A DNA stretch of 63,903 nt, counting the filler, from an uncultured Myxococcia bacterium (GTDB taxonomy: Bacteria; CAZTWC01): assembly GCA_964617105.1 (NCBI GenBank). It is 6 parts of 6 records of this genome, joined end to end, with 100 filler letters (N's around TTAATTAATTAA, not from the genome) between each part and the next. Parts side by side here need not be neighbours in the genome. Positions count along the whole stretch, not along the records: positions 32,704 to 43,368 come from CAZTWC010000110.1; 5 more parts are not named here. One strand, 5' to 3'. The position numbers and the translations under genes were made by a program. Below, piece after piece: positions 6,540 to 54,229 of the stretch (the stretch's first letter is position 1; every line of letters starts with the position of its first letter). The notes beneath the pieces were generated by a model. The model was given only the letters and a program-made list of their open reading frames with translations. It was not told the DNA's origin and ran no database searches.

Positions 6540-6650
6540 TGATATTGGCCTGGTATCTAAAAGCGAATATGTATTGCACTTTTAAATATTAGCACTTTTT
6601 GTTAACAATGGCAACTGAAATTACAGCGATGATAACCGGAACTACAGTTT

Positions 6651-7123: not shown

Positions 7124-7580
7124 GCTCCTGGTCGTAGTGGTGGTTCTCCTCTTTCATGCAAAAAGTTACCGGGTTTAAAGCCGTTACTTTTAGTTTTTTG
7201 TCAACAACCATTTTGCGGCATTTTTTTAATAATTTGTCGTCACAGGTTATAAAAAAATCAGTCGTTTTCTCGGCAAAAGCCACATGGGCAGCATCAGCCA
7301 CTCCAAAAGATTTTGAGTGTAGTTCTTCAGCTCTTTTTCTAAGTTCTGATTGATCAATCTCAGGAGTTTTGCCCAATACCGCCAACAATGACAACAGTTT
7401 CTGCCTTTCCTGAATATCTGTTATAGCCTCGATTTCCGCTATATGCACTGATGATACAATTATAGCATACTTTTTGTCCTGAATCGCCTTTAAAATCAAG
7501 TAAAAGGCATCGGTCTCCAGTTTTATCCTCATCACATCCTGGTCATCAAAGGGACGACAGAGGGTGCAGACATCCAGGTA
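7119..7580 (-). CDS. PIN domain protein (VapC-like); native start apparently lost
   Basis: The frame extends upstream of 7535 to YLDVCTLCRPFDDQ (first PIN acidic motif); also DAAHVAFA and FITCDDKL. An in-frame TAG lies further upstream with no ATG in between. Confidence 0.8.
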   Translation of the reverse strand, partial: YLDVCTLCRPFDDQDVMRIKLETDAFYLILKAIQDKKYAIIVSSVHIAEIEAITDIQERQKLLSLLAVLGKTPEIDQSELRKRAEELHSKSFGVADAAHVAFAEKTTDFFITCDDKLLKKCRKMVVDKKLKVTALNPVTFCMKEENHHYDQEH

Positions 7581-7811
7581 TGAGAGTGAACCAATCCCGT
7601 CAAGGTTGGTTGGAGCAGTGTTTGGCTATACAAGGTAAAAAAAAAATCAGGGTTCCAGTTGTCAACCTAAATCAATATCAAAACATTTGGATAGAGAGAT
7701 GGCCAGATTAATGAAAATCCTTTCAAATATGTGTGTAGGATTTTAAATGCTCTTAAGGCTGTAAACAAATAATAATGTCTAGTAAATCCATGTTTCTAAG
7801 AGGTTGAAAAA

Positions 7812-8168
7812 ATGAAGAAATTAAGTGTAAAAGTAGTCACTTTTGGAGTGTCTATTATGCTGCTGGTTTATTTTCTCAGTTGTAGGGGGACCCAAAATGA
7901 TTGCTGCCAATCACTAGAGAAATGTAATCAAGAGCGACAGGAACTGATAAAATTCAACGAGGAATTAAAAGCGCAATATTCAACTTGGAAAAAGAAGATT
8001 GATTATTTGGAGATTGAGCACAAAGAAAGGAAAAAAGAGATCGAAGAGATAAAAAAGGAACAGTTAAAAGAGATCGAAGAGTTAAAAAAGATTGTTAATA
8101 CCTACTTGGAGAGAGAAAAAGTTTATTTGCCAAGCACCAATGAAACGCCTCAAAACATGAATAAGTAG
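7812..8168 (+). CDS. Hypothetical coiled-coil lipoprotein
   Basis: Basic N-terminus, hydrophobic stretch and FLS-C lipobox-like site, followed by an E/K-rich heptad region. Confidence 0.6.
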   Translation: MKKLSVKVVTFGVSIMLLVYFLSCRGTQNDCCQSLEKCNQERQELIKFNEELKAQYSTWKKKIDYLEIEHKERKKEIEEIKKEQLKEIEELKKIVNTYLEREKVYLPSTNETPQNMNK

Positions 8169-8354
8169 TTGTTTTGTTGTGCCCCGAAAAGCATTTTCGC
8201 CGAGCAGCAGCAACAGTTTCCTCGGTTTCTGAGTTTGAGAAACAGTTGTAGAGCCAGTCACATTCCATTCCTAACCCACCACATTTTTCACTGGTCGATC
8301 ACCCGTTGATCACCCCAAACTCAACTGTGCGGAATCACAGGGAAAAATAGGCCT

Positions 8355-8386
8355 GGACGCGGGTTCGACTCACGCCGCCTCCACCA
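8355..8386 (+). mobile_element. tmRNA (ssrA) 3'-end fragment, probable integrative-element att core
   Basis: GGACGCGGGTTCGACTCACGCCGCCTCCACCA is a T-arm plus acceptor 3' strand plus CCA. One T-stem mismatch; no matching GGGGGCG 5' end upstream. Confidence 0.75.
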
Positions 8387-8708
8387 TTTTGTCTTGTATT
8401 TACGTCAAGTTACGGCGAAAAAACCCAAAAAATATGTCGATCACTGGTCGATCACCCCCCAATGCGGGGGTGAGATGGCATTAATTTCATGTGTCCGCAT
8501 GTGCATGAATATTGAGCAGAACCGGTGGTGAAATCGGAGATGACCAGACCGGGGAAATAGGTGCTTTTTGGACGCCAGACACTCTCCCCGAACGCAGGCG
8601 GGGTCTCCCGTGTCCGCCAGGGATGGTTTTGGTGTGATCTCATACAGTTAGGGGATGATGGCAGGGGAGGTGATCGATGGTGTGAGTCGGAAAGTGGGCA
8701 GCAAAAAA

Positions 8709-9134
8709 TCAGGGGGTGTTGGCGATCTTGCTTTCAGTTATCACAAAATCTTTACCAGGATTTACCGCATTTAGAAGTTCTGTCAATTTGCCAATAGTGG
8801 GGTCTGCTTTTGCCTGTTCGTATCGAGCATAGGCATTGTGTGATTTCTGGCCAATTTTTGCTACAGCCTCTTTTAATGTCAATCCCCGCATTTGCCTTTG
8901 CCGTTTCAGCAAAAGAGCCACCAGTTCAAGAGTATCGGCGGATATTTCGAAATAATCGCCTTTTCCGGGATGGACATTGACCTGCACACCCTCTTTGTTG
9001 ATCAATTCTTCGGTTGCGTCTTTGATCATCTCAAAGGCTTCTTTTTTAGTCGTGCCTTGAGTCATTATATCGAGCATTGGAATTTCAATCAGCCAAAAGC
9101 GCCCATCTTTCCAAACTTTGCCTTGTAATCTCAT
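8709..9134 (-). CDS. hicB: HicB-family antitoxin with C-terminal XRE HTH
   Basis: W.IEIP.LD..TQG.T..EA..MIKDA N-terminal domain, then RQMRGLTLKEAVAKIG....AYARYEQ...PT HTH. Confidence 0.88.
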   Translation of the reverse strand: MRLQGKVWKDGRFWLIEIPMLDIMTQGTTKKEAFEMIKDATEELINKEGVQVNVHPGKGDYFEISADTLELVALLLKRQRQMRGLTLKEAVAKIGQKSHNAYARYEQAKADPTIGKLTELLNAVNPGKDFVITESKIANTP

Positions 9135-9137
9135 TGA

Positions 9138-9311
9138 TTAACCCTCTTTTGCCTTTTTGATTATCTTTTTGGCCAATGGTTCAGCAATTTCAGTATGCCT
9201 GGGAACAGGCTCCTCAATGGAGCCGTTTGTCCAGATATCGTGTTTTTTACCATGTCTGGCAAGTTCCCATCCCAGCGACTTTAATTTTTTCTCTAACTCT
9301 TTTCTTTTCAT
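9138..9311 (-). CDS. hicA: HicA-family mRNA interferase toxin (57 aa, below ORF-track cutoff)
   Basis: Manual translation MKRKELEKKLKSLGWELARHGKKHDIWTNGSIEEPVPRHTEIAEPLAKKIIKKAKEG; lies directly upstream of hicB. Confidence 0.9.
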   Translation of the reverse strand: MKRKELEKKLKSLGWELARHGKKHDIWTNGSIEEPVPRHTEIAEPLAKKIIKKAKEG

Positions 9312-9351
9312 AAAACTTACAATTATAATTTACACTGATACGTGTAATTAG

Positions 9352-10993: not shown

Positions 10994-11093
10994 NNNNNNN
11001 NNNNNNNNNNNNNNNNNNNNNNNNNNNNNNNNNNNNNTTAATTAATTAANNNNNNNNNNNNNNNNNNNNNNNNNNNNNNNNNNNNNNNNNNNN
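10994..11093. other. Artificial contig spacer (also 21825-21924, 32604-32703, 43369-43468, 54130-54229)
   Basis: 44 N + TTAATTAATTAA + 44 N. The internal contigs are in decreasing length order (10731, 10679, 10665, 10661 bp). Confidence 0.98.
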
Positions 11094-21824: not shown

Positions 21825-21924
21825 NNNNNNNNNNNNNNNNNNNNNNNNNNNNNNNNNNNNNNNNNNNNTTAATTAATTAANNNNNNNNNNNNNNNNNNNN
21901 NNNNNNNNNNNNNNNNNNNNNNNN

Positions 21925-30534: not shown

Positions 30535-32603
30535 TCATCTAGCCCGCCATCTCTCCAGGGAAAAATAGAGGCTGGGCACTAAAATTAAAGTGATCAGGGT
30601 GGAGGAGAGCAAACCTCCTACCACTACTCTGGCTAAAGGAGCCTGCATCTCTCCTCCCTCGCCTACTCCCATAGCCACCGGCACCAGAGCCAAAGAGGTG
30701 GTTAGAGAGGTCATAAGGATAGGGCGCAGCCTCCGCCGGCCCGCCTCCAGAACAGCGGGCAGCAAGTCGGTCTGATCCCGGCTCCGTAATAGATTGATAT
30801 AATCAACCAGCACAATAGCATNNNNNNNNNNGTTTGACTATTACACGAAATTATAACCTATTTTCGACACAAAACGATTCAAAAAGAACATAAATAATCT
30901 CGTATTAGTCATTATTTGACTATTTCCCTTATTTTAGCAGCCAATAGCATTGTTTACCACAATGCCGCAGAGCACAATGGCGCCCAAAAAGGAGTTTATA
31001 TTAAAGGTGGTTCCGGTTAACAGCAGGCTTAATACCACCCCAATCAGGGCAAAGGGCACAGCCAACAGCATAACGAATGGATGGAGCAACGATTCAAACA
31101 GAGAGGCCATCACCATGTAAACCAAAGCGATAGCTAAACATAACCCCAGCAGTAAATTGCTGAAACTCTTTTTCTGCTCCTCTAATTCGCCGGAAAACTG
31201 TACCCGAAAATTGGACGGTAACACCAGTTGGCGGAGTTTTTTACCGATATCGCTGGTCACCGAGCCCAAATCCCGGCCGCTAAACCCGGCATTGACCGTA
31301 ATCAGCCGTTCCTGATTGAGCCGTTCTATCATCATGGGCCCCAGCTTATACTGGATGGTGGCTACATCACCCAGGGAGATACGCTTCCCCTCCGGGGTCA
31401 ACAGGGGCAAATCCAACAGTTGGCTGGTCAATCTCCTATCACTCTCCTGCAGCCGCACTAACACCCGGAATTCATCACCGTATTGGCGAAAATAGGTGGA
31501 AGCAGTACCCAATACATAGGTGGAGATCTCATCGGCTATACTACCCACCGATAATTTCATATCAGCCGCTTTATCAGCATCTATACGGATTATCGCCTCC
31601 AGGTTACCCTCCTTGCGATCGATATCCACATCCACTACGCCGGGCACCTCCTCTATTAGAGAGGATACCTGCCGAGCCAGCCGTCCTCCCGCTTCCCGGT
31701 CATGACCTAAAATACGAATAGATATCCGTTCGCCACCGCCCCGCAACATCCTGAAGAGCCAAAAGGCCTCTCCGGCCCGAACCCGGGCCTTAAAATCCGG
31801 AATACGATTCAGATAGCGGCGCACCTGCATGGCTATCTGATTGGCGCTGCGGTTCCTATCTTTTATATTGGTTAATTTGACAAAAATTCGACAGGCGTTC
31901 TGGCCGGAACGAGACCAAAAACCTGGAGTTCCAGCCACTCCCATCACAGAAACCGATTCTGGAATCTTGGCGGCCAATTGGGACTGTAACCACTTAACTA
32001 CCGCCTCAGTCTTCTCCAGCGGGGTTCCCACCGGCAATTTGCCGTAAATCCGCACCTCGCCCTGGTCACCTTCGGGCATCAACTCCATACCGATGAGAGG
32101 GATGGCGGCAATGCTGCCTCCTAGCAAAGTCAGGCAAATGATGAAAACCAGCCAGGGACGATTCAGAGAGCCTTTGAGCAGATAGAGGTAACCTGACTCC
32201 AGCCGGTTAAGGAAACCAGCCAATATTCCGTTGTTGGTTTCAGCCGATTTATTAGATGATCCTGGTTTATTCCGGGAACCCGCCTGAGATTCAAGAGAGG
32301 CCAACACCGGCACCAGAGTTAAAGCCACCGCTAAAGAACTCAACAGAGCAAAAGAAACCACGTAGGCCATCTGGCCAAAAAAAATACTGGCAAAACCTGT
32401 CATAAATACCACTGGCACAAAAATGCAGATAGTGGTCATGGTGGAGGCCACAATGGCGGTGGAAACCTCAGAACTGCCCAGGATAGCTGCCAATTTTGGT
32501 GTCTGGCCCAACTCCCGTTGACGCTGGATATTTTCCAGAATAACAATAGAGTTGTCCACCAGCATTCCAATACCAAGAGCCAGGCCGCCAAAGGTAATCA
32601 TAT
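30535..32603 (-). pseudogene. RND (AcrB/AcrD/AcrF family) efflux permease, 5' partial, interrupted at GIVVNNAI|VLVDY by an insertion or gap
   Basis: GMLVDNSIV..ENI, YMVMASLFES..HP, GIVVNNAI and RLRPILMT motifs. The two ORF pieces rejoin in frame if 30822-30950 is removed. Confidence 0.85.
30822..30942. mobile_element. Collapsed insertion (probable IS end) flanked by an 8-9 bp target-site duplication
   Basis: AATAGCAT at 30814-30821 and 30943-30950. The visible end reads GGCTGCTAAAATAAGGG on the minus strand; a 10-N gap covers the other end. Confidence 0.65.
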
Positions 32604-32703
32604 NNNNNNNNNNNNNNNNNNNNNNNNNNNNNNNNNNNNNNNNNNNNTTAATTAATTAANNNNNNNNNNNNNNNNNNNNNNNNNNNNNNNNNNNNNNNNN
32701 NNN

Positions 32704-34349
32704 TTGACGAAGATATCATGACCCAATTTATCGAGACTATTAGCGTAAATCTTCACCAGGTATATTTTGCCCGCACTTTTATCCATAAATATATAGATGA
32801 ACTAAAAGATAGAAAAAAACTCAATCAAAATGTCGATTATGACCAGGAAATAAAAAATCTAAAAAATTTGGTGATTTTTCTCTATTGTTTGGAAAATTTC
32901 ATGGCAATTCCCGGCCTTTCACATCCAATAACCGGTGATATTTTGCGTAGACGGATAGAAGAGGTCTATTTAGATATGCAAGACAAACCAAATAGTAAAT
33001 GGCGGCATCCAGATAATCTAGAAGACTTATTAGAAATTATACCACCGAAAATCGACAATGTTATCGACCAAATTTACGTTGACCCCCATGATGAGAAACA
33101 GGAATTGCCATTTCAATTTTTAAACGTTTTATTACCGGTTTTACGCTATGAATTTTTTGAGCGTCAAAAAGATTCAAATCTGTCGAGGCTCCGCTTTTTA
33201 TCCAGGCGCATCAAGGGTAAAGATGGGAAAAACCGTTTTGAAAATATCTTAGAAATTACCCACAAAATAAAGCCACCGCCACTTCCAACTCCAACGATAA
33301 TTTTGGATGCCACCGGCAAAGCCGGTATATATGAGCGATTATTTGATGCCAAACCTATTGTCTATGCGCCAAAGTTAGAGTTTGCCAATAGAGTCATTCA
33401 GGTTTACTCGACTTCCGGCTCTATCGGTGCTCTGCGAAATGCCATCCACAAAAGCCGGATGGTCAAACTGTTAAAATATTATTTGCACGAGCAGCCTCTA
33501 TCATTGGTTATCTGCAAGCAGTCCTTGGAAAATGAACTCAGAAAAATAGTCCCAAAAGGGACTATGGTCAACCACTACTACGGCACCCGTGGTTCCAATG
33601 AATTTGAGAAATTACAACGGGTAATTGTTTTCGGCATGCCGGGGATGAACCCTGAGACAGTCCGCCAATATGCCAGTGCATTTTACTATCAGGATAACCT
33701 GTCTACCGACACTGAAATCGTCATCCGGCAGTACGTCAACAATGATGTCGGCGTCAAAGTCCTGGTTTACAAAGAACCACTTGTCCAGGCGATAGCCGAG
33801 ACCGGCCGGGAGGATGAAGTATTGCAGTCGATTCATCGCATCCGGCCAGGGTTAACCCCCTCAAAAGACATAATTTTGCTAACCAATTTAGTTATTCCTG
33901 ACCTACCGGTTACACAACTGGTTTCAGTTGATGATGTGCTGGGGAGGAAAAAGCAGGATAGAAAGGAGAAAGCGGTAAAAATGCTTCGCAATTTAATCGA
34001 AATGCAATTGGACAAAATTGGTTTTGTCTGTCCGGCAAGGACGCTTTGGCCGATTATTGGGAACAAAGAAAAGCCATCAATTGAGAACGAAAATTTTATG
34101 AAGAGCAATGATATCTGGTGCCAAATCTCCAAAGAAAAAGAAATGACAAAGTCTACGTTCTATCGGCATATTTCCGCCATCAAAAAGGACAGTTCAGTCT
34201 CTACTTATGCACTGTCTGTAAAGGGCAATAAAGGATTTGCCCAGGTTGAAATTATTGGACGTAATCCGGGATGTCAGAACAAGGCAATTGACTTTTTTAG
34301 CAAGCATCCCGAATTTAAAAAAGAAAGGCATAGCATAATTCACACTTAG
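32704..34349 (+). CDS. SF2 helicase-like replication/origin-binding protein (5' partial)
   Basis: DED at the contig edge (motif II-like), ILDATG (motif III), HYYG.RGSNEF and QSIHRIR (motif VI-like). Confidence 0.6.
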
Positions 34350-34351
34350 GG

Positions 34352-34437
34352 TGTCTCATTTTTTTTCCCCATTAATAAGTACTAAGTACTTATATACAAA
34401 TGCATCTGTATAGTTATTGGGGAAAAAAAATGAGACA
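34352..34437. repeat. Perfect 20-bp inverted repeat enclosing two internal palindromes
   Basis: TGTCTCA-T8-CCCCA (34352-34371) pairs with TGGGG-A8-TGAGACA (34418-34437). Inside are ATAAGTACT-A-AGTACTTAT and TATACA..TGTATA. Confidence 0.85.
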
Positions 34438-34471
34438 TGCTCTTGTGTGAATAATGTGAGTGCGGACATAG

Positions 34472-35332
34472 ATGAGTAAGCAAATGGAGAATTTAACAAT
34501 GCACACAGTAAGCCAGGGAATCGTATCAGGAAGAAGGAGAGAAGGTCTTAGTGATGCTACATCCAACTTTACGCAGCAGAAACGGCCAGCGGCCGCCAGC
34601 AAAACCTCTCAAGCATTTAATCAAAGGCAGTTACATGGCCAACACCACTTCCAGCGTGCCAGCGTTTGCAATTACAGAAATGTTGACATTTGGGCGGCTA
34701 CTAATCTGGAAATATTGAATTTGCATAAAACCAACCCCGACAGAGAGGATATCTTGCATGAGAATAAAATTTACCGGCGCCTTTCACCAGACTATTTTTT
34801 GTGGCTTCAAAAGCGGTTTTTTAATTTTAGGCAGGCGGTAGAGAAAAAATTGGTTGACGGTAAAACAGAAACTGAAGTTGCAAACCGCTTTGGTCGGATT
34901 CAATTATTAGCCGAAAGATATTTTAGTCCACACGACTTTGATACAGCAAAATTCCGGCTAAGTCTTCTGCCAATGCTGTCGCCTAACAAAAAAGAGCAAA
35001 CATTTTTTATATACCCGACCGATAAAACCTTACCGGTTTTCAACCCAATAAGCAGTTACGCATTGAAGCAAGTGGATGCGGTTAAACATAGAGCGATTTC
35101 TCTTGGTTGGACTGAGTCCGGCCTCTACCAGAACCAAGGAACTTTCACATTTCCCTATGGATTTGACTGGGGAATTATCAACTTCATTGACCGGGGCGAC
35201 CGACTTGGCGAGGTAACCTCGAAAACCATAGAACTTATAACCGCCACAGGAAGTGTTTTGCACTTTTACAAGCATGGTAATGGCCGCCGGCATCAAGTTG
35301 GACTTAACAAACGGGAGAAAGATAATGGCTAA
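34472..35332 (+). CDS. Hypothetical phage protein
   Basis: 286-aa ORF co-oriented in the phage operon; the real start is uncertain. Confidence 0.6.
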   Translation: MSKQMENLTMHTVSQGIVSGRRREGLSDATSNFTQQKRPAAASKTSQAFNQRQLHGQHHFQRASVCNYRNVDIWAATNLEILNLHKTNPDREDILHENKIYRRLSPDYFLWLQKRFFNFRQAVEKKLVDGKTETEVANRFGRIQLLAERYFSPHDFDTAKFRLSLLPMLSPNKKEQTFFIYPTDKTLPVFNPISSYALKQVDAVKHRAISLGWTESGLYQNQGTFTFPYGFDWGIINFIDRGDRLGEVTSKTIELITATGSVLHFYKHGNGRRHQVGLNKREKDNG

Positions 35333-35621
35333 CAAAATATTCTGCGCCAATTGCATCAACTGCAAAGTGTTTCGTCACTACTCCAGTGATAAGACCACCT
35401 ATACTCAGAAGGTGCGATGCACAGCGGTGCAGTGGAAAAAACCTGGCGGTGGCGAAAAGACATATTTTCTTCACACTTTGCTCAACAGGCAGATGGAAAA
35501 ATGCTCTGAATTTGAATTTGCTGGCGACAATCTAGCAGACGAGCAAACCTTTATTCAGAGCCTGCGCCGGACTTTACCGGGAAGCAAGATCATCCACACT
35601 GTTACAGCCATCGGGAGGTAA
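35325..35621 (+). CDS. Hypothetical Cys-rich phage protein
   Basis: MANKIFCANCINCKVF...RC...C; GGAG RBS; overlaps the previous stop. Confidence 0.65.
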   Translation: MANKIFCANCINCKVFRHYSSDKTTYTQKVRCTAVQWKKPGGGEKTYFLHTLLNRQMEKCSEFEFAGDNLADEQTFIQSLRRTLPGSKIIHTVTAIGR

Positions 35622-35624
35622 ACC

Positions 35625-35891
35625 ATGACTAAAAGTAACTATATCAAAGGCACCTGGTGCCTTACCTCAGAGCAAATTGAAAAATTACAGGATCAGGGCC
35701 TGGAGGGAAAGCAAATATACGTCCCAACCAGAACAGCCAAAAAGCGGGAAGAGCGTCTTAAAAGTGTCGGCCACTTGCATGATAACCAGGGACTGAGTCT
35801 CTCGCAAATAGCAGATCAGTTGCACATATCCCCCCGGAGAGTGGCAACCCTGGTAAAAGAGTTCAGGAAGCAGTCTGAGGGTGAGAAATAG
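35625..35891 (+). CDS. Small HTH DNA-binding protein (sigma70 region 4/Mor-like)
   Basis: GKQIYVP followed by GLSLSQIADQLHISPRRV; GGAGG RBS. Confidence 0.7.
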   Translation: MTKSNYIKGTWCLTSEQIEKLQDQGLEGKQIYVPTRTAKKREERLKSVGHLHDNQGLSLSQIADQLHISPRRVATLVKEFRKQSEGEK

Positions 35892-35962
35892 TGGTGAAAT
35901 AAAGGTGGCGAGCCCCTCCCGCCCGGGAGGAACAATTTTTTATTACGCAGGAGGAACACAAG

Positions 35963-36466
35963 ATGTCCAAGTTTAGTGAAACAGCAAAAAGATGTTCAGC
36001 AATGACTTATTCAGGTAAGTCTTGCCCGAACCCGGCAATGAAGGACAGTGACTTGTGCTGGCAACATAGCAAGGTTCGAAATCCGGAGTTGATTGGTAAA
36101 CCAAAGTGGTGGCAGGAATTGCCAGACACTCTCGAGATAAACAATAGCGAAGAACAGGAGTTGATGATCAGCGCCTTAGAAGCGATAGATGATGATTTTG
36201 ATTTAAACGAGTCCACTGACAGGATGCAGGCGCAGATGTCGGCATTTTATTTTTCCAAATGGGTCTCGGCCTGCAAACAGAATAATCTGGAGTTGGCAGC
36301 CGCCCACGATCATCTCTTGCAAAAGAACCTCAAGTGCCTGAAGGCAACCCGGGACATAAGAGAAGGTGTAGAGGTACAGATGAGCACCCCGGCGGAGTGG
36401 GCGGCCGATTTGTTGGAGGAATACAATAGCAGGCAAGGTGAAGATGCACAATCACGGCCAAAATAG
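35963..36466 (+). CDS. Putative terminase small subunit with N-terminal Zn-finger-like motif
   Basis: C.A.T..G..C..........C..H motif; helical C-terminus; AGGAGG RBS; last conventional plus-strand gene before terL. Function is inferred from position. Confidence 0.5.
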   Translation: MSKFSETAKRCSAMTYSGKSCPNPAMKDSDLCWQHSKVRNPELIGKPKWWQELPDTLEINNSEEQELMISALEAIDDDFDLNESTDRMQAQMSAFYFSKWVSACKQNNLELAAAHDHLLQKNLKCLKATRDIREGVEVQMSTPAEWAADLLEEYNSRQGEDAQSRPK

Positions 36467-36770
36467 AAAAAAAAGGGCGCAGATGTCGTTGGCAGGCAGG
36501 AGGTAACTATGCGTTATCAGGAGAGGCAGATTTTAAAAAAGGGCGCAGAACACCCGTTCTCTGACCTTGCAGACTGGCGGTTTATAATGGAATATCAACG
36601 TGTTAACAAGGATGATCAAGTTGTGCATGGTATAACCCGGTCGCATAAATCTCAGGTGATGTTGGCAGAAAATAGCCCTTCCGGTCAAAGTGAACCAGAG
36701 AACAAAAGTAGTTTGCCAAAAGGTAAAAAATGGGCGAACAAAAACTTATTTACACTATTTCAAAACCCCC

Positions 36771-36852
36771 ATGTACAAACGTGTACAAACCATGTACAAC
36801 TGCGTACAAACCCCCTGTACAAATCGACCTTTTTTTATGTACGATTTGTACA
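36771..36852. repeat. Array of GTACAA(A/C) direct repeats plus an 11-bp inverted repeat
   Basis: Copies start at 36772, 36782, 36793, 36803 and 36816. TGTACAAATCG (36816-36826) pairs with CGATTTGTACA (36842-36852). Confidence 0.85.
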
Positions 36853-36931
36853 TGACAATTTTTGCAGATTTTTTGAAAATCAGGACTCTCAAAAATCAAA
36901 ATTAGTGGAAACGCTGAGAGCGATTTTTTTT

Positions 36932-37888
36932 CTACCCCAAATCCTCGATAGCATCCTCGAGCTCATAATCGAAAAGATGGGTGTATATTTGAGTGGTACT
37001 CACCTGGCGGTGGCCGAGGGCTTTGGATGTCAAAATCAAGTTTCTGGTCTGGCCATAGAGGTTGGTGGCAAAAGTGTGGCGCAGAGAGTGGATGGTGAGT
37101 TTGCGATCAATATTGGCCCAGGTGAGCCACTGAGTGAAGCGGCGTTCCACCTGGCGGGCGGTGATCCTGGTTTTGCGGTTGGAGATGAAAAGTGGTTGGC
37201 CGGACTGACCGCTTTGATTGGTCAGGCTGGTCTGAGCCTGATCTGTTGGGCTATTGCTGATGGCGATATTGCCGGTGCTGTTATCATCCCTTCTCTTGCG
37301 GAGCCAGGCTTTCAAAAGGCGGCGAAGTTTGCTCCCCAAAAAGCGGCTCTCCTTTCTTCCGCCCTTAACCTTAATATCGATTTTTTTGTCATCCAGCCTT
37401 ACATCGCAAATGTCGAGGCCGACAAGTTCGGCCAACCGGATACCGGTGCCCAAAAAGAGTTGGATGATAACCAGGTCTCTTTCTGCGGCCGTCCCTCTTT
37501 GTCTACTGATTGCTTTGATAAGGCGTTTTCTCTCGCCAGGAGTCAAAAAAACAGGGTCTTTTCTCTGGGGTCTTTTTATCTTGAGTGTCCGGGCCGGGTT
37601 TTTATCCAAGAGATCCTCCTCCTCGAGATACCGACCAAAGGAGCGCAAAATTGCCTTAGTGCGAGAAATTGTTATCTCACTTCGATTGTTACCGTTATCA
37701 GACCTGGTGACCAATTTAGAGATCGTGTAGCGGTTTACCATGTCGCTGGTAAACTCTGTAATTTCAATGTTGCCGGTAAAAAGCATCAGCCGGCTGAGTT
37801 CCCGTTTATAGACATCAATGGTAAGTGGGCTCTTCTCTTGAGCGGTCATGCTAGTAAGGAAATTTTCAATACACTCATTGATTATCAT
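36932..37888 (-). CDS. Tyrosine recombinase, XerC/D-like
   Basis: RD..II.L.L.TGIRL.EL..L, VKGGRK, HSLRHTFAT and LGH..VSTTQIYTH give a complete catalytic set. Confidence 0.95.
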   Translation of the reverse strand: MIINECIENFLTSMTAQEKSPLTIDVYKRELSRLMLFTGNIEITEFTSDMVNRYTISKLVTRSDNGNNRSEITISRTKAILRSFGRYLEEEDLLDKNPARTLKIKRPQRKDPVFLTPGERKRLIKAISRQRGTAAERDLVIIQLFLGTGIRLAELVGLDICDVRLDDKKIDIKVKGGRKESRFLGSKLRRLLKAWLRKRRDDNSTGNIAISNSPTDQAQTSLTNQSGQSGQPLFISNRKTRITARQVERRFTQWLTWANIDRKLTIHSLRHTFATNLYGQTRNLILTSKALGHRQVSTTQIYTHLFDYELEDAIEDLG

Positions 37889-37963
37889 CTATCTGTTCCC
37901 TCCTTCTGTTTCTCCTTAGTGTCCTCTCTATTTGTCATAGTCACTCTCTTCTTTCTACATACA

Positions 37964-37999
37964 CATGTGACCTTCCATTTGCCAGCAAGTCAAGTCAAT
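37964..37999 (-). promoter_or_regulatory. Repeated promoter/operator motif upstream of the recombinase (copy 1)
   Basis: Minus strand ATTGACTTGACTTG-N5-AAATGGAAG-N4-CATG, with the same spacing as copy 2. Confidence 0.7.
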
Positions 38000-38032
38000 T
38001 GTCTAGTATTATCAGTACTTTTGCCTGAAACC

Positions 38033-38063
38033 AAAAAGGGCGCCAGGATATTCCTGACACCCA
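38033..38063 (-). terminator. Intrinsic terminator after the 188-aa gene
   Basis: Minus strand GGGTGTCAGGA-ATA-TCCTGGCGCCC-TTTTT. Confidence 0.65.
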
Positions 38064-38101
38064 AGTTGGTCACTTTAAAGTGTTCTAACTCGGCTGGTTG
38101 T

Positions 38102-38668
38102 TCAGTTGTCGTTAACACTGTCTTCACTGTTGTCCTGACTCTCTTGGCCTTCCTCCCTATTGTCTGGACGTTCTTCGCTACTATCAGTATTTTCTCTGCA
38201 ATTATCTTGAACCGTTACGGTTTCTTCTGGCTCGGGCGGATTGTCCGGTTCAGTTTGGCCTTCTTGCTCAGTCTGGCCGCCTTGATTAGCCTGGCTCCCC
38301 TGATTAGAGTTGACACTTTTAACCAACTTCATCTCATCCTTGGGCAAAGGCAGTTTGACAATAATTCCAGTTTCAAAAGCCCAGACCAGAAACTGGCGGG
38401 TTACCCGGCGGATCTGCAGTTTGGTCGGTTCGGCCATGGGACGGTCTTTAACCTTGGTAGCCAGGTCGCTTTTGAAAAAGCCGGCAATATGGGCTGGCAG
38501 GATTTTACCCATCTGTTTTTGCTCTCCCTGATGGGTTACCACCAATTTCAGCAGTCGGCCAATTGTGTTTATGGTGGACTCCTTTTTGCCCTGGCTCTTC
38601 AAATATTCGAGATACTCAGGCACTGTTTCTTTTACTGTTTTTGGTGTTGTTTCTGCAGTTTCATTCAT
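38102..38668 (-). CDS. Protein resembling an integrase N-terminal SAM-like (core-binding) domain, with acidic disordered tail
   Basis: V.E.V..YL.YL...GK.ESTI.T....L...I..FF....T....RRV.RQFL.WA...G pattern; no catalytic motifs. Confidence 0.6.
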   Translation of the reverse strand: MNETAETTPKTVKETVPEYLEYLKSQGKKESTINTIGRLLKLVVTHQGEQKQMGKILPAHIAGFFKSDLATKVKDRPMAEPTKLQIRRVTRQFLVWAFETGIIVKLPLPKDEMKLVKSVNSNQGSQANQGGQTEQEGQTEPDNPPEPEETVTVQDNCRENTDSSEERPDNREEGQESQDNSEDSVNDN

Positions 38669-38713
38669 GGCTCATCTCCTTTAATGGTAAGTTTTTTTTG
38701 GTATCGACGTGTC

Positions 38714-38749
38714 CATGAATGCTTCCATTTTGAAACAAGTCAAGTCAAT
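38714..38749 (-). promoter_or_regulatory. Repeated promoter/operator motif upstream of the 188-aa gene (copy 2)
   Basis: Same ATTGACTTGACTTG-N5-AAATGGAAG-N4-CATG motif. Confidence 0.7.
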
Positions 38750-38784
38750 AATACCAATAAATTTAAATTAGTTAGAGGTGCTTA

Positions 38785-40323
38785 ATGCCAAGACCCAGAA
38801 AACCTATTTTTGAGATGGACCAGAAAAAATTAGTGGCAATATTGAAAGACCCGGTAAGGTGGGGTGAGTTTTTTTTGCTGAACCGGGATAGGAGTAGGCG
38901 CAAATACTGGAGTCACCAGAAAGATGATTTGCGCTGTAAAGCAAGTTTTATCGTTCACAGGGACGGCCGGGACACAGGTAAGACCGTATCTCTTACCACC
39001 CATCTCCTTAATTATGCCTTTACCACCAGGGGAGGCTCGGTCCTGGTAGCGGCACCCCACCAGGCCCAACTTGATACTCTGGTGGATGAGTTTGAGTTCC
39101 AATTGGAAAACTGTTCCGATCTACAGGCCAGTATCGCCAAAAACAAAATTGGCGCTCCCAAGGTAGTTAGAAAACCGTATTTCAAAGTGGAATTTGCCAA
39201 TGGCACAGTGGTCCACTTTCGACCGGGCGGCCCTTACGGAGAGGCATTTCGTTCATTACACGTGCAGATGCTCTATATTGACGAGGCTGCGTATATACCG
39301 GACAAAGCCTGGAAGGCCCTGAGAATGTGTCTTTTAGAAAACGGCAGGATGAGAGTTTACTCTACTCCCAACGGTATCCGCGGCTCCTATTACTACAAAA
39401 TTACCAAATCAGATGATTGGGAACTTTTTCACTGGCCCAGTTGGATAACTCCTCGGTGGAGCAAAGAGAGGGAGCGCTATTTGCTGAGTTTTTACGGCGG
39501 CAAAGATACAGTTGACTGGCAGCACGAGATTGCCGGCGAGCATGGTAAACCCAGTTTTGGGGCCTTTAATATGGAACAGTATTACCGCTGCATGGGTGAT
39601 GTAAAGGAATATCAGCGGATTTTTATCACCGGTGAGCAGTTTAAGGATTGTGACAGTGAAGATGAGATCAAAGAGCGGGTGAATACGCTACTGAATTTGT
39701 CGAAGCACTCAGGGATTTACTATCTGGGAGGTGATCTGGGTTATACAGCCGATCCAACTGAACTAATATTGTTTGCCTTAACTTCCGACACTATGCGGCT
39801 GGTGCTGCGGGTTCATGCTGAGCAGGTGGCCTATCCGATTATTAGCGAACTGATTGCCGCCATAGACAGATACTACCAGCCAGCGGCCATCGGTTTAGAC
39901 AAGGGTGGTAACGGCCTGGCAGTGATGCAGGAACTTCTTACTCTGGACAAGTTTACCGAAAACCAACTGACAGACAGATTGGAGGGGTTTGATTTTGGCG
40001 GCTCCACCATTATTGGCCAGGATGAATATGCTGCCCCGATTAAAAAACGGACCAAGGAATATATGACCCAACTTATCAACTTTGCTCTGGCCAAAAAGCG
40101 GGTGAAATTTCCTGCTGATGACCACGAGATAGAGGACCAGTTCGCAGATCACACTTATCATATTGGCGAGCGGGGGATTATCTACTCCAAAGGTAAAGAC
40201 CATATCATCGATGCTATCAGGTGTGCTTTTTTAGCCCGGGAGATGAATCGGCTTAATGAATATATTGATCAGGAAGAGGAAGTTTACATCCCTTGTATGG
40301 CCACAGAGCCAATTTTTAGATAA
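38785..40323 (+). CDS. terL: Phage terminase large subunit
   Basis: Q motif (WSHQ), GRDTGKT Walker A, LYIDEAAY Walker B, STPNG, GGDLGY..DPT nuclease and DHIIDAIR motifs. Confidence 0.92.
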   Translation: MPRPRKPIFEMDQKKLVAILKDPVRWGEFFLLNRDRSRRKYWSHQKDDLRCKASFIVHRDGRDTGKTVSLTTHLLNYAFTTRGGSVLVAAPHQAQLDTLVDEFEFQLENCSDLQASIAKNKIGAPKVVRKPYFKVEFANGTVVHFRPGGPYGEAFRSLHVQMLYIDEAAYIPDKAWKALRMCLLENGRMRVYSTPNGIRGSYYYKITKSDDWELFHWPSWITPRWSKERERYLLSFYGGKDTVDWQHEIAGEHGKPSFGAFNMEQYYRCMGDVKEYQRIFITGEQFKDCDSEDEIKERVNTLLNLSKHSGIYYLGGDLGYTADPTELILFALTSDTMRLVLRVHAEQVAYPIISELIAAIDRYYQPAAIGLDKGGNGLAVMQELLTLDKFTENQLTDRLEGFDFGGSTIIGQDEYAAPIKKRTKEYMTQLINFALAKKRVKFPADDHEIEDQFADHTYHIGERGIIYSKGKDHIIDAIRCAFLAREMNRLNEYIDQEEEVYIPCMATEPIFR

Positions 40324-40345
40324 CGAACGAGTATAGGAGGAAACC

Positions 40346-41686
40346 ATGAGACAGACAGGTAAAACAAAAAAACAGGAAAAGATGCTCACCGCAGCATCTC
40401 TGGACCCTGGTGTATTCAACCAGCACACTGCGGGAGAGACTGTGCCGGAAAAATGGATTGATGTGGCCCGTAAAGCCTGGGAGTATTACCGGACAGAGCC
40501 GATAGTGTCAAATGCTGTCAACTCCTGGCGGGTCTTTGCCATTGGCGATGAAATCGGCATTTCCTGTGAAGATGAGAGTGCTGAAAAGGAGATCAAAGAG
40601 GTGTTCTACCGACTCAATTTGAATCGATTTGTCAAAGACATGGTTTTGCAACTTTTAGTCAAGGGTGATGCTGTTGGCTATTTTAACCGCACCAATGATG
40701 GGACCGACATCGAGAAGGTGACCTGCGTAAATCCTATCTCGGTGGAGATGAAATTTGACAATGATGTTCTAATCGAGGTAGTTCAAAAATCCAGTCTGGC
40801 TTCAGGAGTAACAGAGGAAAAGACGGTTAACCTGCTATTGGACCAGATGGTCCATCAAAAATGGAACGCCACTGAGTTTTGTTTGCGGGGCAACTCTATG
40901 ATCCTGCCAGCCTTTGATGCCATAGAGTTATTGAGAGACTATCGTCGGGCAGAGCGGGCCATTGCCAAAAGGTGGGCAACTCCTTTGCGGTTTATCAAGG
41001 TGGGCGGATACTATGGCAACAAGTTGATAAAACCAACGGCCAAAATGATCGATGATATCCGTAAAGAGATGAACAACCTGGATTTGAACTCAGGATTGGT
41101 GGTGCCCTTTTTTGTCAAGGCTGAAACCTATGGCACTAACGGCGCCTTAGATACCGAGGGCAAGGTCAAGCAGATAAAAGAAGATATTTTGGTGGCGCTT
41201 GGTATGTCCAGAAGTATTATCGCCGGTGATGGCCCTAACTTTGCCACCGCCAGTATATCGCTGCAAAAAATGGTTATTGGGTTAAAAGAGATCAAACAGA
41301 GAGCCAGGGAACTGCTGGACTGGGTATTTGGCGAATGGATGCTGCTCAAGGGGTACAAAGATATCGCCGTCAATTACCACTTCAATGATCTGGATTTGCA
41401 TAACGAGACAGATATCAAAAAATTGTTTGTGGATATGTATGACCGGGGGCTCATGTCAAAAAAGACGCTACAGACTAAAATCGGTCTTGATCCGGTGGTG
41501 GAAGAGAGCGGCAAAAGCCAGGAAAGAGTTATTCTCGACACTAATTGGAGTGTTCAGGATATAGTCCAATTGGTATCTTTGGGAATACTGACACCCGAGG
41601 AATCGAGGCGGATGCTGGGATTGGAAGGCGATGGCGAGGTAGAGGATGAGGCCGGCGCCACTGAGGCTATTTACCAGATGATGTAA
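40346..41686 (+). CDS. Phage portal protein
   Basis: 446 aa directly after terL; EPIV.NAV, LLVKGDA and G.S.ILPAF..IELL portal-like segments. Confidence 0.75.
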   Translation: MRQTGKTKKQEKMLTAASLDPGVFNQHTAGETVPEKWIDVARKAWEYYRTEPIVSNAVNSWRVFAIGDEIGISCEDESAEKEIKEVFYRLNLNRFVKDMVLQLLVKGDAVGYFNRTNDGTDIEKVTCVNPISVEMKFDNDVLIEVVQKSSLASGVTEEKTVNLLLDQMVHQKWNATEFCLRGNSMILPAFDAIELLRDYRRAERAIAKRWATPLRFIKVGGYYGNKLIKPTAKMIDDIRKEMNNLDLNSGLVVPFFVKAETYGTNGALDTEGKVKQIKEDILVALGMSRSIIAGDGPNFATASISLQKMVIGLKEIKQRARELLDWVFGEWMLLKGYKDIAVNYHFNDLDLHNETDIKKLFVDMYDRGLMSKKTLQTKIGLDPVVEESGKSQERVILDTNWSVQDIVQLVSLGILTPEESRRMLGLEGDGEVEDEAGATEAIYQMM

Positions 41687-41759
41687 ATCTGGCATTGGAC
41701 TTCATTACAACTGGGCTAATCAAGATAGAATAGAGGACAAGGAACAGGGGCACTTTTAG

Positions 41760-42638
41760 ATGGACAAGGTTATGGTTACACTCAAATCGCAAGCCAAGAC
41801 CGATAGCAACGAAAGCCAGATTATCACCAAAATCAGGACTGGTCAGGATAAGTTAACCAACAAACAGGCGCAGGAGTTGGAGACCGTTCTGGCCACAGCC
41901 GCTAAAAAGATCAGGGAGCAGATCTATTACTATGAAGAGATGGCCATGGTCTCCCCGGCCTTGCCGCAAAGCCAGGCGGTGCGATTGGCCTATCTGCCAG
42001 CCATCAAGGAGATGGTGGATCAGATAAAGGAAGAGTTATCCAGAGAACTTTCATCTATCGCCCCTGCCCAGGTTGAGGAAGCGGTAAAGGCTGGGATTGC
42101 CAGCGGCATTGTTGAGTTCAAATATCGGGGAGTGACCGGATATGAAGAATTGAAAACGGCTGAAATTCTCGGTCTGATGGAGAGCTTCCTGCCGGGAGTG
42201 GATACCGAAGCACTGCAGTTTTTACAAAACTACCGTATTCAACTGATGGGCAATCTATCGGAGCAACTCTGTCATGATATCAAAATGAGGATATCTGGCG
42301 GGATTATCAGCGGTAAAAACACTCCTCAGATAGTGCGGGAGATCGGCCGGGTGATAAAGGACAAAGAGGCGTTCAGGCGGGCGGGCAAGACTGTGTTCAA
42401 GAGTGCCCAGCAACGGTTGATGCTAATCTGCCGCACTGAAATCAATCGAGCCCACAACCACGGCCGCTTGCACTTTTACAAAGAGACCGGAGTTAAGAAA
42501 GTCAAGTGGTGGGCGGCCCTGGACAGGCGGTGTTGCCCGGAGTGTTCTGGTCGGCATGGACAGGTGTATGATGTGGGTAAGGTGGAGGCACCCAGTCTTC
42601 ACCCCCGTTGTCGTTGTTCCCTGTTTGCAGTGGTCTAA
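41760..42638 (+). CDS. Phage minor head protein (SPP1 gp7 / Mu gpF family)
   Basis: R...I.RTE..RAHN.G, W.A.LD.R.C..C...HG and P.LHPRCRC motifs. Confidence 0.9.
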   Translation: MDKVMVTLKSQAKTDSNESQIITKIRTGQDKLTNKQAQELETVLATAAKKIREQIYYYEEMAMVSPALPQSQAVRLAYLPAIKEMVDQIKEELSRELSSIAPAQVEEAVKAGIASGIVEFKYRGVTGYEELKTAEILGLMESFLPGVDTEALQFLQNYRIQLMGNLSEQLCHDIKMRISGGIISGKNTPQIVREIGRVIKDKEAFRRAGKTVFKSAQQRLMLICRTEINRAHNHGRLHFYKETGVKKVKWWAALDRRCCPECSGRHGQVYDVGKVEAPSLHPRCRCSLFAVV

Positions 42639-42656
42639 TGGCTAAGATGAATAGAA

Positions 42657-43016
42657 CTACTTTCTGTCTCGAATATTTGCCGTTGGCGGCTGAAATTGCT
42701 GAGTAATATACTCCCGTAAAACCTTGTTTATTTTGGTTTGATATTTACCACCCTGGGCTTTAAACCAGGAGATAATATCAGAATCGAGACGTATAGTAAC
42801 AACTTTTTTAACTGGACGGTAAAACTTACCACGAGCAGCATCTGGCCAATCTGCAACTGAAGGAAGTTCCGGGTCTGTTAAATCAATTTTACTGTCATCC
42901 ATCATCGATAAAGCATCTATTTCTTCTTCCATTTCAGGGGAGACCTTGTAAATATCGTCTCCAATCACGCGAGTGACCTTTCCTGGCCGAGATGATTCTG
43001 ATGATTTCTTCCCCAT
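42657..43016 (-). CDS. brnA: BrnA antitoxin
   Basis: RPVKKVVTIRLDSDIISWFKAQGGKYQTKINKVLR ribbon-helix-helix signature. Confidence 0.92.
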   Translation of the reverse strand: MGKKSSESSRPGKVTRVIGDDIYKVSPEMEEEIDALSMMDDSKIDLTDPELPSVADWPDAARGKFYRPVKKVVTIRLDSDIISWFKAQGGKYQTKINKVLREYITQQFQPPTANIRDRK

Positions 43017-43227
43017 TTTTATCCTCCTCCACTACGTGGGCTACCTGCAAGAGTAAGCGTTCTGTTGCCAGGCCAATACTGATCCATCTCTCCTCGCCAT
43101 AATCATAACGGTTATCCAGCCACGTTAATATGTTTGGATCATTAAAGGCAAGCATGGCAACCTCAAAACTAACTCCATGCTTTTTCTGGTTACTTTTATT
43201 TTTGTTTTCATCCCACTCAAATATCAT
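42934..43227 (-). CDS. brnT: BrnT ribonuclease toxin
   Basis: FEWDENKN.SN.KKHGVSF, YGEERW.SIG and IRIISARK motifs. Confidence 0.93.
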   Translation of the reverse strand: MIFEWDENKNKSNQKKHGVSFEVAMLAFNDPNILTWLDNRYDYGEERWISIGLATERLLLQVAHVVEEDKNGEEIIRIISARKGHSRDWRRYLQGLP

Positions 43228-43245
43228 TCTACCACAATATAATTA

Positions 43246-43265
43246 TATTTACAAAATTGTAAATA
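43246..43265. promoter_or_regulatory. Palindromic operator upstream of brnT
   Basis: Perfect TATTTACAA-AA-TTGTAAATA inverted repeat just upstream of the brnT ATG. Confidence 0.6.
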
Positions 43266-43468
43266 CTTTTATCGAGGTTACTTAAATTTTTGTCAGCTCA
43301 GTTGTTGGATAATAAGAACACTTTTTTTCTTCTGCGACCTCACATTCAGAAATAATTTTTCAAGGCATNNNNNNNNNNNNNNNNNNNNNNNNNNNNNNNN
43401 NNNNNNNNNNNNTTAATTAATTAANNNNNNNNNNNNNNNNNNNNNNNNNNNNNNNNNNNNNNNNNNNN

Positions 43469-54129: not shown

Positions 54130-54229
54130 NNNNNNNNNNNNNNNNNNNNNNNNNNNNNNNNNNNNNNNNNNNNTTAATTAATTAANNNNNNNNNNNNNNN
54201 NNNNNNNNNNNNNNNNNNNNNNNNNNNNN

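Follow-up and report, generated by a model that had tools for sequence, protein, structure and literature searches.

The window analysed here is a stretch of 63,903 nucleotides (nt; filler included) that was joined from six contigs of an uncultured Myxococcia bacterium (assembly GCA_964617105.1), and the subject of this report is a long open reading frame (ORF) on one of them, a contig of 10,665 bases that occupies positions 32704–43368 of the whole stretch. The contig carries late genes of a tailed phage. On the plus strand, a gene for a protein of 167 amino acids (aa), called terS-like here, is followed further downstream by the genes for the large terminase subunit (terL), the portal protein and a Mu-F-like head protein. 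Between the terS-like gene and terL, two genes are located on the minus strand, one for a tyrosine recombinase and one for a protein of 188 aa that carries the core-binding ('SAM-like') domain of integrase N-termini (coordinates in Table 1). The ORF in question, referred to as the bridge frame, lies on the plus strand, is antisense to both genes of this inverted cassette and stays stop-free for 758 codons, from a start codon just past the terS-like gene to a stop codon that overlaps the start codon of terL.

The open stretch begins at position 36467, directly after the TAG of the terS-like gene and in the same frame, so that it comprises 772 codons when counted from stop to stop. The element AGGAGG-N5-ATG lies 42 nt past this TAG, and its Shine-Dalgarno motif equals the best sites of the contig, those of the terS-like and portal genes, in strength. 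Counted from the bridge ATG, the recombinase gene and the 188-aa gene lie at offsets of 423 and 1593 nt, which are multiples of three, and thus both are in exact codon register with the frame. The frame also includes 141, 71 and 38 intergenic codons (155, 71 and 38, i.e. 264, when counted from the preceding stop), none of which is a stop codon. A preliminary description of the locus, made from the sequence alone, had reported the start element, the 758 codons, the TAATG overlap with terL, the exact register of both minus-strand genes and about 250 stop-free intergenic codons, and had recognized no family in the product; all of these coordinates and counts proved to be correct, and the product has no match to a Pfam or PHROG family. 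It is partly very hydrophobic, and the hydrophobic stretch mirrors the acidic tail of the 188-aa protein.

In this register, antisense stops correspond to the sense codons TTA, CTA and TCA. The recombinase contains 37 leucine and 22 serine residues and the 188-aa protein 12 and 11, but a codon count confirmed that neither gene uses any of the three codons, in accordance with the preliminary description (zero observed in both genes versus 17.5 expected). Given the amino acid sequences and the codon usage of the contig, the probability of this absence is 5e-7 for the recombinase gene, 5e-3 for the 188-aa gene and 2.4e-9 for both jointly. The other eleven A-ending codons occur at the expected level (105 observed versus 105.7 expected), and therefore the avoidance is specific and does not reflect a shortage of A at third positions. 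It had been foreseen that the idea of selection would fall if TTA, CTA and TCA were so rare in this element that shuffled genes often gave a run of this length, and a test with synonymous codon shuffles and local base composition had been proposed. The three codons make up 3.1% of the codons in the neighbouring genes of the contig and 3.6% across the window, and none of 1000 synonymous resamplings reached the observed run: in the resampled sequences, the longest open late-strand run across the cassette measured 180 codons at the median and 374 at most, compared with 578 of 578 codons in the actual sequence.

The intergenic pieces lie beyond the reach of codon choice and were compared with dinucleotide shuffles, which contained on average 8.1, 2.8 and 2.2 in-frame stops in the three pieces (about 13 in total); the fractions of shuffles devoid of any stop were 1e-4, 0.043 and 0.089. 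In the two remaining plus frames, the three pieces contain 7 and 10, 6 and 2, and 3 and 6 stops, respectively. The local content of guanine and cytosine (GC) is 0.44–0.48, and elsewhere in the window nested antisense stop-free frames do not exceed 204 codons. The bridge frame is thus far beyond chance, and base composition is excluded as its explanation within the window.

Relatives of the product are rare: a search with the 758-aa sequence gave a single match in 5.8 billion clustered proteins and 11 matches in 1.84 billion representatives. Two of the relatives, P0001 and P0128, belong to the window's own lineage. P0001 comprises 875 aa, is 49–54% identical and is collinear with the bridge product over its whole length, sharing both the Met-Arg start and the end; it has about 100 additional codons ahead of the recombinase, and the spacer between the genes differs by several insertions or deletions (indels) that keep the frame. 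P0128 (549 aa, 36–40% identical) covers both cassette genes together with their spacer and has the same end. Both align in the bridge frame opposite the genes, and therefore the same register is used. The conservation of the antisense frame in diverged homologues, which the preliminary description had put forward as a check, is thus found in part: the same frame is open in both relatives and P0001 starts at the homologous methionine, but other lineages use other registers, as detailed below. The similarity is high only over the minus-strand genes or over DNA motifs, namely the terminator repeat and the TGTACAA array described below, and the free N-terminal 140 residues are 32% identical to P0001, with large indels.

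The four matches whose sequences were inspected (P0127–P0130) are at least partly antisense readings of recombinase loci. Among them, P0129 (462 aa) starts as the antisense of the C-terminal part of a recombinase and then continues in frame into a Mu-F-like head protein; either this relative is rearranged, or its gene call was extended upstream through an open antisense frame. P0127 (135 aa) is 97% identical to the first approximately 120 residues of the bridge product and then ends with 16 unrelated codons; the divergence is at about position 36866, approximately 14 nt past an inverted repeat, and the tail is not encoded in any of the six frames of the window. This break could be an att-type junction or could stem from a variant phage. 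DNA contigs from eight sequencing runs of two studies were considered, and four of the runs, with short contigs of low depth, were compared. Among the differences, joints and loose ends listed, two differences lie inside the frame and no joint or loose end lies near 36866; in a marine run that includes the window sequence, the loose end of a contig reads like the N-terminus of P0128.

Further searches for relatives were performed in several collections. No close relatives were found in IMG/VR with terL alone or with the recombinase alone, and a search of IMG/VR with an alignment of three antisense products gave 420 pattern matches, none of which was confirmed. Metagenome contigs and genome contigs were also scanned, and generic Xer-type recombinases filled the matches listed in both scans; among these matches, the best from the metagenomes was 35% identical, and the genomes added the loci L081 and L082. 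In cultured phages, the nearest TerL is 27% and the nearest recombinase approximately 30% identical.

A scan of IMG/VR with an alignment of the closest recombinases yielded 80 loci, in which the proteins of the contig were placed by tblastn. About 60 of the 80 loci, as well as L082, exhibit the same order: a g286 homologue, the terS-like gene, the inverted core-binding and recombinase genes, terL, the portal gene and the Mu-F-like gene. This order is shared by group A (21 loci), group B (40 loci), L001, L003, L056, L060–L062 and L082, and across the family TerL is approximately 54% and the portal protein 50–60% identical. Therefore, the late genes always face an oppositely oriented recombinase cassette, and the inverted cassette between the terS-like gene and terL, which had been seen correctly at the outset, is not an odd insertion but a family-wide part of these phages. 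L082, a member of group B, resides as a prophage in the cultured strain Ectothiorhodospira shaposhnikovii DSM 243. By recombinase DNA, eight lineages can be distinguished: group A (GC about 0.54–0.56), group B (GC approximately 0.63), L060/L061, and the single loci L001, L002, L003, L056 and L062.

The nearest relative with a DNA record, L001, has a recombinase that is 46% identical to that of the window and contains one frame of 975–983 codons from the terS-like stop to terL, which at a GC of 0.65–0.70 is not significant on its own (resampling P 0.149). Relatives with a GC of 0.52–0.59 contain 4–9 in-register antisense stops inside the recombinase gene. Antisense stops in homologous cassettes had been named as an observation that would speak against selection for the frame, and, taken literally, they are present at this GC, yet group A is open in other registers. 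On the late strand of group A, the interval between the terS-like stop and terL is filled by two long other-register ORFs and then two small genes, at whose junctions stop and start codons overlap. In all 19 analysable loci of group A, 4–7 start-to-stop ORFs tile this region and leave 0–6 nt uncovered, in comparison to 11–39 ORFs and 40–342 uncovered nt in an equal-length control, the antisense strand from terL onward (two of the 21 loci, which miss a flank, were left out). In group B, 33 of 34 analysable loci have no uncovered nucleotide, compared with 18–141 nt in the controls; the exception, L010, carries an insertion and has 91 uncovered nt, and five of 39 loci were left out owing to a missing flank. 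The late strands of L003 and L056 are tiled likewise.

The stretches that are stop-free in all 18 distinct sequences of group A, or in all 27 of group B, overlap across the cassette, and in group A they continue unbroken to terL. Resampling of four group A loci gave P values of 0.013, 0.005, 0/1000 and 0/1000, and L002 and L003 were borderline (P 0.049). As group A is open in other registers, it is the openness, and not this particular frame, that is conserved. It should be noted that the two small genes that separate the cassette from terL in groups A and B (about 90–109 aa; L011 3709–4256 and L013 3688–4292, both minus in the respective records) are real genes, and that they are lacking in the window, in L052-type variants, in L056 and in L060.

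Groups A and B are large enough for a population test based on single-nucleotide polymorphisms (SNPs). All 19 analysable loci of group A were used (18 distinct sequences, 90–96% identical), together with 27 of the 34 loci of group B, after removal by hand of L009, L022, L030, L053, L057 and L071, which match retained loci, and of L010 with its insertion. SNPs were regarded as tolerated when they are silent in the sense gene or lie in noncoding DNA, and the creation of a stop was judged for each SNP singly. In the bridging frames of group A, 3 tolerated SNPs create a stop, compared with 12.9 expected, and among the SNPs that are silent in sense genes the numbers are 0 and 8.05. In the bridging frames of group B, 0 stop-creating SNPs were observed versus 11.6 expected. 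Shifted control frames behave neutrally, with 13 versus 20.0 and 24 versus 27.8 in group A and 21 versus 21.4 and 20 versus 24.2 in group B.

The peptides of the bridging frames are not guarded in the same way. An omega-like ratio, i.e. the density of replacement SNPs relative to that of silent SNPs, was calculated for transitions and transversions and amounts to 0.05/0.06 for terL, 0.20/0.09 for the recombinase gene, 0.18/0.16 for the terS-like gene and 0.17–0.28 for the small genes before terL (three tested). The free bridging parts, in contrast, have ratios of 1.36/0.44 and 1.03/1.73 in group A and of 1.0/0.54 and 1.12/1.46 in group B, and no Pfam family was found for the bridging products of the relatives. 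Thus, in both groups the bridging frames are guarded against stops, and their peptides are free to drift (omega of about 1).

The genes and sites around the bridge frame are listed in Table 1. The terS-like protein belongs to no Pfam or PHROG family; homologues that are 30–49% identical occupy the same position in related phages, so that the conserved place before terL supports the label given in the preliminary description and a match to a TerS family does not. A Mor- or late-activator-like protein with a helix-turn-helix (HTH) motif is encoded next to it, and this would be in keeping with a late promoter directly ahead of the bridge frame. For the cassette, the proposed pair of a tyrosine recombinase and a SAM-like protein was corroborated by the domain matches. 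The recombinase has 2235 database homologues, and its residues R151, K175, H267, R270, H293 and Y302, which we take to be the R-K-H-R-H-Y catalytic set, are invariant in 15 homologous sequences. Residues 10–108 of the 188-aa protein align with positions 164–253 of PHROG_1 (E 2.6e-6), the protein has no Pfam match, and homologues of its gene are found upstream of the recombinase in related loci. For TerL, the Pfam matches to Terminase_6N and Terminase_6C are below the cut-off, and the tblastn matches include annotated terminases, the best of which is 27% identical.

Table 1. Genes, signals and repeats at the locus of the bridge frame (positions of the whole window)
Feature	Position	Strand	Evidence and remarks
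HTH protein, 88 aa	35625–35891		Just upstream of the terS-like gene; weak matches to PHROG_836 (3.2e-6) and PF08765 (0.0044; Mor/late activator)
terS-like gene, 167 aa	35963–36466	+	Stop codon TAG; in the bridge frame; label from position only
Shine-Dalgarno motif AGGAGG	36498–36503	+	Followed by 5 nt and the bridge ATG at 36509
Bridge frame	36509–38785	+	Antisense to both cassette genes, codon register shared
Terminator-like hairpin and T run	36541–36555	-	Downstream of the recombinase gene; contains one copy of AAAAAGGGCGC
TGTACAA-type array	36769–36852		Five phased direct repeats, ending in an inverted repeat; just 3' of the recombinase gene
Tyrosine recombinase, 318 aa	36932–37888	-	PF00589, E 1.2e-32, 113.5 bits (cut-off 27.1); PHROG_1 integrase, 2.4e-45
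28-nt direct repeat	37972–37999 and 38722–38749		86% identical; each cassette gene is preceded by one copy; contains TTGACT when read on the minus strand
Strong terminator-like hairpin and T run	38038–38062	-	11 pairs (7 G-C); directly 3' of the 188-aa gene
Core-binding ('SAM-like') domain protein, 188 aa	38102–38668	-	PHROG_1; acidic tail
TAATG overlap	38783–38787	+	Bridge TAA (38783–38785) overlaps terL ATG (38785–38787)
terL, large terminase subunit, 512 aa	38785–40323	+	PHROG_2, 6.7e-27
Portal protein, 446 aa	40346–41686	+	PHROG_2739, 2.3e-43
Mu-F-like head protein	41760–42638		Downstream of the portal gene; PF04233, 1.1e-13

The cassette contains its own control regions, all of which are crossed by the bridge frame. 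Clear terminators are present on the minus strand only, and none of comparable strength was found on the plus strand. The sequence AAAAAGGGCGC, which gives a GCGCCC stem followed by a T run when read on the opposite strand, occurs three times (36470–36480, 36536–36546 and 38033–38043). It takes part in the two terminator-like hairpins of the minus strand, at 36541–36555 and 38038–38062, and the bridge frame reads through all three copies. The two copies of the 28-nt repeat are probably the two promoters of the cassette, as judged from their places and the TTGACT motif; the scan that revealed the hairpins did not flag them. The inverted repeat at the end of the TGTACAA array (36816–36852) has perfect arms of 11 nt and a spacer of 15 nt, and array and inverted repeat are probably the target of the recombinase or a pac-type site. 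The TGTACAA motif is readable at the same place in the product of P0001, and relatives carry other repeat arrays at this place, with a spacing of 45 nt (L013 6074–6293, L011 5967–6072). The pattern of the inverted repeat matched 26 loci in IMG/VR, none of which contains a relative of any gene of the contig. An inversion switch was rejected, as the cassette is not flanked by inverted repeats. A Mu-like transposable phage was considered on account of the Mu-F domain and the Mor-like activator; one 90-kb record with terminal repeats does not fit Mu, and a search for Mu-transpos_C in five records gave no match, but the control genomes also gave none.

Several further observations concern the contig and the window as such. 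A BrnT/BrnA toxin–antitoxin pair (PF04365, 6.3e-25; PF14384, 2.7e-16) is encoded on the minus strand at the end of the contig (42657–43227), opposed to the head genes. The parts of the window, of about 10.7 kb each and ordered by falling length, are joined by N44-TTAATTAATTAA-N44 linkers at 10994–11093, 21825–21924, 32604–32703, 43369–43468 and 54130–54229, so that genes across the joints are not physically linked, and an extra run of 10 N is present at 30822–30831.

Taken together, the results are best accommodated by the view that the plus-strand frame is ambigram-like and is probably kept stop-free for the sake of translation itself, so as to bridge the late transcript across the cassette. 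With slightly less confidence, this can be extended to the phage family as a whole, which on balance would seem to maintain ambigrammatic frames devoid of a protein function, either one in-register frame of 758–983 codons or two coupled frames in other registers, solely for translation across the cassette. A ban on stops that is specific for certain frames can be perceived only via translation. In the window, in L001 and in groups A and B, the frames end on or a few nucleotides from the start of terL, or at the small real genes that lead to it, and in L001 and groups A and B the stop/start junctions overlap as well. Frames that run from the terS-like stop to terL, or to the small genes before it, in combination with a peptide that is free to vary where this could be assessed, are most simply explained if ribosomes must stay on the transcript. 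The strong Shine-Dalgarno motif, the stop/start overlap and the restriction of terminators to the minus strand fit translation from upstream.

According to this interpretation, the late packaging transcript would cross the inverted cassette in antisense orientation. Ribosomes would load at the AGGAGG-N5-ATG element just past the terS-like gene, would translate 758 codons across the two genes of the cassette, the recombination site and the control regions of the genes, and would stop at TAATG; the act of translating, and not the protein, would matter. The coupled ribosomes would most likely keep the approximately 2.3 kb of antisense RNA from Rho termination or decay, and they would also pass on to terL. 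Variants of the mechanism, such as protection from decay, protection from pairing with the recombinase mRNA, or delivery of ribosomes to terL, would leave similar traces and are not separated here. Translation of the frame, passage of the late transcript through the cassette, and a purpose in relief from Rho polarity, RNA protection or coupling are inferred. A plausible history is that GC-rich ancestors, of the kind seen in L001, had the open frame at no cost; the phage then grew dependent on it, and its openness was maintained while the lineage fell to 45% GC. The earlier proposal of selection for openness has thus gained support from codon avoidance, intergenic DNA, relatives and SNPs, and of the two alternatives that it had left standing, passage of ribosomes or a real overlapping gene, the second has lost ground, as the product is probably irrelevant.

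A number of points weigh against this interpretation. Its support consists of sequence evidence, and the relatives of the window's own lineage, P0001 and P0128, are protein-only records, so that codon-level and SNP tests on relatives are confined to other lineages. In the GC-rich group B, in L001 and in L056, the long frames are not significant (resampling P 0.07–0.56), and for group B it is only the SNP test that carries weight. The 3 stop-creating SNPs counted in group A lie in noncoding DNA and produce no stop in any real sequence, and the limits of the bridging frames were set with the same sequences as the SNPs, although limits taken from the reference only would shift by at most 33 nt. 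L060/L061 and L062 have the same gene order but no bridge; their late strands contain 12–16 short ORFs, and resampling P values of 0.93–0.996 indicate frames that are shorter than the null expectation. Therefore, a bridge is not obligatory. In addition, terL has its own Shine-Dalgarno-like motif, GAGGTG, and thus coupling is not obviously needed for its initiation. A role in evading Rho would presuppose Rho in the host; the MurE protein of the bin, to which the phage contig putatively belongs, is 42–45% identical to proteins named as Deltaproteobacteria and similar groups. A by-product of 758 aa that is partly very hydrophobic would be costly.

The two bridge-less lineages exhibit a peculiarity in terL. 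The terL ORF of L061 (late strand 6560–9316) and of L062 (5735–8491) comprises 918 codons, and it includes an N-terminal extension of about 400–470 codons that has no similarity to the TerL of the window. This extension could be a domain insertion, or these lineages may have found another solution.

The same observations have to be weighed against other explanations. One of them is that the frame is a real antisense overlapping gene, whose 758-aa protein itself is under selection, which would readily account for an open frame with a strong Shine-Dalgarno motif and ATG that is kept in P0001 and P0128. Long antisense overlapping genes have indeed been claimed for bacteria (10.1101/2021.02.09.430400; for this and for all other sources cited by identifier, statements refer to the accessible part of the text). 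However, a protein under selection is hardly compatible with the lack of a Pfam or PHROG family and with only 11 matches among 1.84 billion representatives, with a similarity that is confined to the parts over minus-strand genes and motifs and falls to 32% identity in the free N-terminus, with an omega of about 1 in those parts of the group A and B frames that overlap no gene, and with a hydrophobic stretch that only mirrors the acidic tail of the 188-aa protein. The related lineages use other registers and hence cannot share a common protein, and a survey considers it unlikely that essential proteins are specified by long antiparallel ORFs (10.1101/724807). Nothing favours a real protein in the window's own lineage, and this explanation is regarded as improbable. 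A product of approximately 940 aa, generated by readthrough of the single TAG that separates the terS-like gene from the bridge frame, would make use of the shared frame and of the open stretch that begins directly after this codon. The shared frame is, however, a coincidence expected in one of three cases, and in L001 the terS-like gene and the bridge are in different frames; the bridge also has its own strong Shine-Dalgarno motif and an ATG that is kept as the start of P0001, and TAG also terminates 7 of the window's 32 other long ORFs. Readthrough or fusion is therefore given hardly any credence.

A frame that is open or translated might instead serve to regulate the cassette: antisense RNA covered by ribosomes, or transcription through the cassette, could shut off the recombinase late or protect the recombination site. 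The frame does cover both genes, the promoter-like repeats, the terminators and the inverted-repeat site, and the selection data fit this explanation equally as well as the bridging of the late transcript. Silencing would not need limits that extend precisely from the terS-like gene to terL, and we consider such a function possible but unlikely. Last, it could be argued that there is no selection at all and that a shadow ORF arose by chance, by codon bias, by poor decoding of TTA, CTA and TCA, or as a leftover from a GC-rich ancestor. GC-rich relatives do contain in-register antisense frames of 403–452 codons (17 loci, gene GC 0.66–0.68), and 983 codons in L001, and a 'pseudoambigrammatic' state that results from extreme GC at third codon positions (GC3) has been described (PMC13262655). 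In the window, however, the local GC is 0.44–0.48, the three codons make up 3.1–3.6% in the neighbourhood, the other A-ending codons are used normally, and the 264 stop-free intergenic codons could not be brought about by codon choice. A leftover would have decayed, since the recombinases of the window and L001 are only 46% identical and their silent sites thus saturated, and the relatives with a GC of 0.52–0.59 have 4–9 such codons in the recombinase gene. An unselected shadow ORF is thus extremely improbable. Avoidance of rare codons in early genes was also considered and was rejected, because it can explain neither the intergenic DNA nor the other registers.

If maintenance of the frame for translation itself is correct, an ordinary bacterial DNA virus would contain a reading frame that is selected solely for its readability, and selection of the ambigram type would thereby be encountered for the first time beyond RNA viruses. 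It would also represent a new escape from Rho polarity, by which an operon tolerates an inverted insert in the absence of an antiterminator. There are practical implications as well: gene callers take such frames as genes, as illustrated by the database entries P0001, P0128 and P0129, and the true recombinase may go uncalled, and odd codon usage in a gene can stem from a constraint on the opposite strand. Owing to the prophage L082 in a cultured strain, the system is open to experiment.

Several known systems can be compared with this arrangement. With respect to the cassette, the Cre-loxP system of phage P1 reportedly adjoins pac and the pacase genes, and the first headful is said to be able to carry the site at both ends and to circularise after injection. 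The cassette of the window resembles P1 in that a tyrosine recombinase and an inverted-repeat site are located next to packaging genes; the site of the window combines phased direct repeats with an inverted repeat that has arms of 11 nt and a spacer of 15 nt. With respect to transcription, a translating ribosome prevents Rho termination, and long untranslated or antisense RNA is a substrate for Rho. Known escapes include short leader peptides, normal genes, and antitermination factors such as N and Q of lambda, or RfaH, and in comparison to these, the bridge frame would be a long frame without a protein function that carries ribosomes across inverted genes. Rho has been described to act on untranslated nascent RNA and to limit antisense transcription (PMC5909445), and the topic of Rho and antisense RNA has been reviewed (PMC12360218). 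No report of a long non-protein frame that is kept for the passage of ribosomes over inverted genes was found in the open-access literature.

The bridge frame shares features with three classes of ORFs. As in a translationally coupled ORF of an operon, a ribosome-binding site of its own lies near the upstream stop, and its stop overlaps the next start. As with shadow or overlapping ORFs (10.1101/724807, 10.1101/2021.02.09.430400), it is long and antisense, and an in-register frame tends to stay open; shadow ORFs of GC-rich genomes are driven by composition, whereas at the bridge frame the GC is about 0.46 and the avoidance is specific. Claimed overlapping genes are said to be under purifying selection on the protein, whereas the relatives of the bridge frame show none.

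The closest parallel is found in narnaviruses, which have a reverse ORF opposite the RNA-dependent RNA polymerase (RdRp) gene (DeRisi et al. 2019, 10.1101/761890). The accessible parts of two articles argue against a functional protein as the product of this reverse frame and hold that the act of translation is possibly what matters (Retallack et al. 2021, PMC8316113; Dudas et al. 2021, PMC8155312). Among the matches listed in a search of open-access full texts, none reports an ambigram in a DNA phage. The likeness comprises a long stop-free frame on the complementary strand, in exact register, that results from the avoidance of TTA, CTA and TCA; an openness that is kept in diverged relatives, with the exception of L060–L062; and, in groups A and B, omega and SNP results that point to translation rather than to a protein. 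The differences are equally clear: the phage is a tailed bacterial virus with double-stranded DNA, as indicated by terL, the portal and the Mu-F-like protein, and not a eukaryotic RNA virus in which both strands are RNA; its frame spans two genes and three noncoding stretches and is coupled to the genes of an operon; and sister lineages use two frames in other registers. A benefit from coupling against Rho would have no counterpart in narnaviruses. Thus, the phage frame works like an ambigram, but it is not a member of the narnavirus group.

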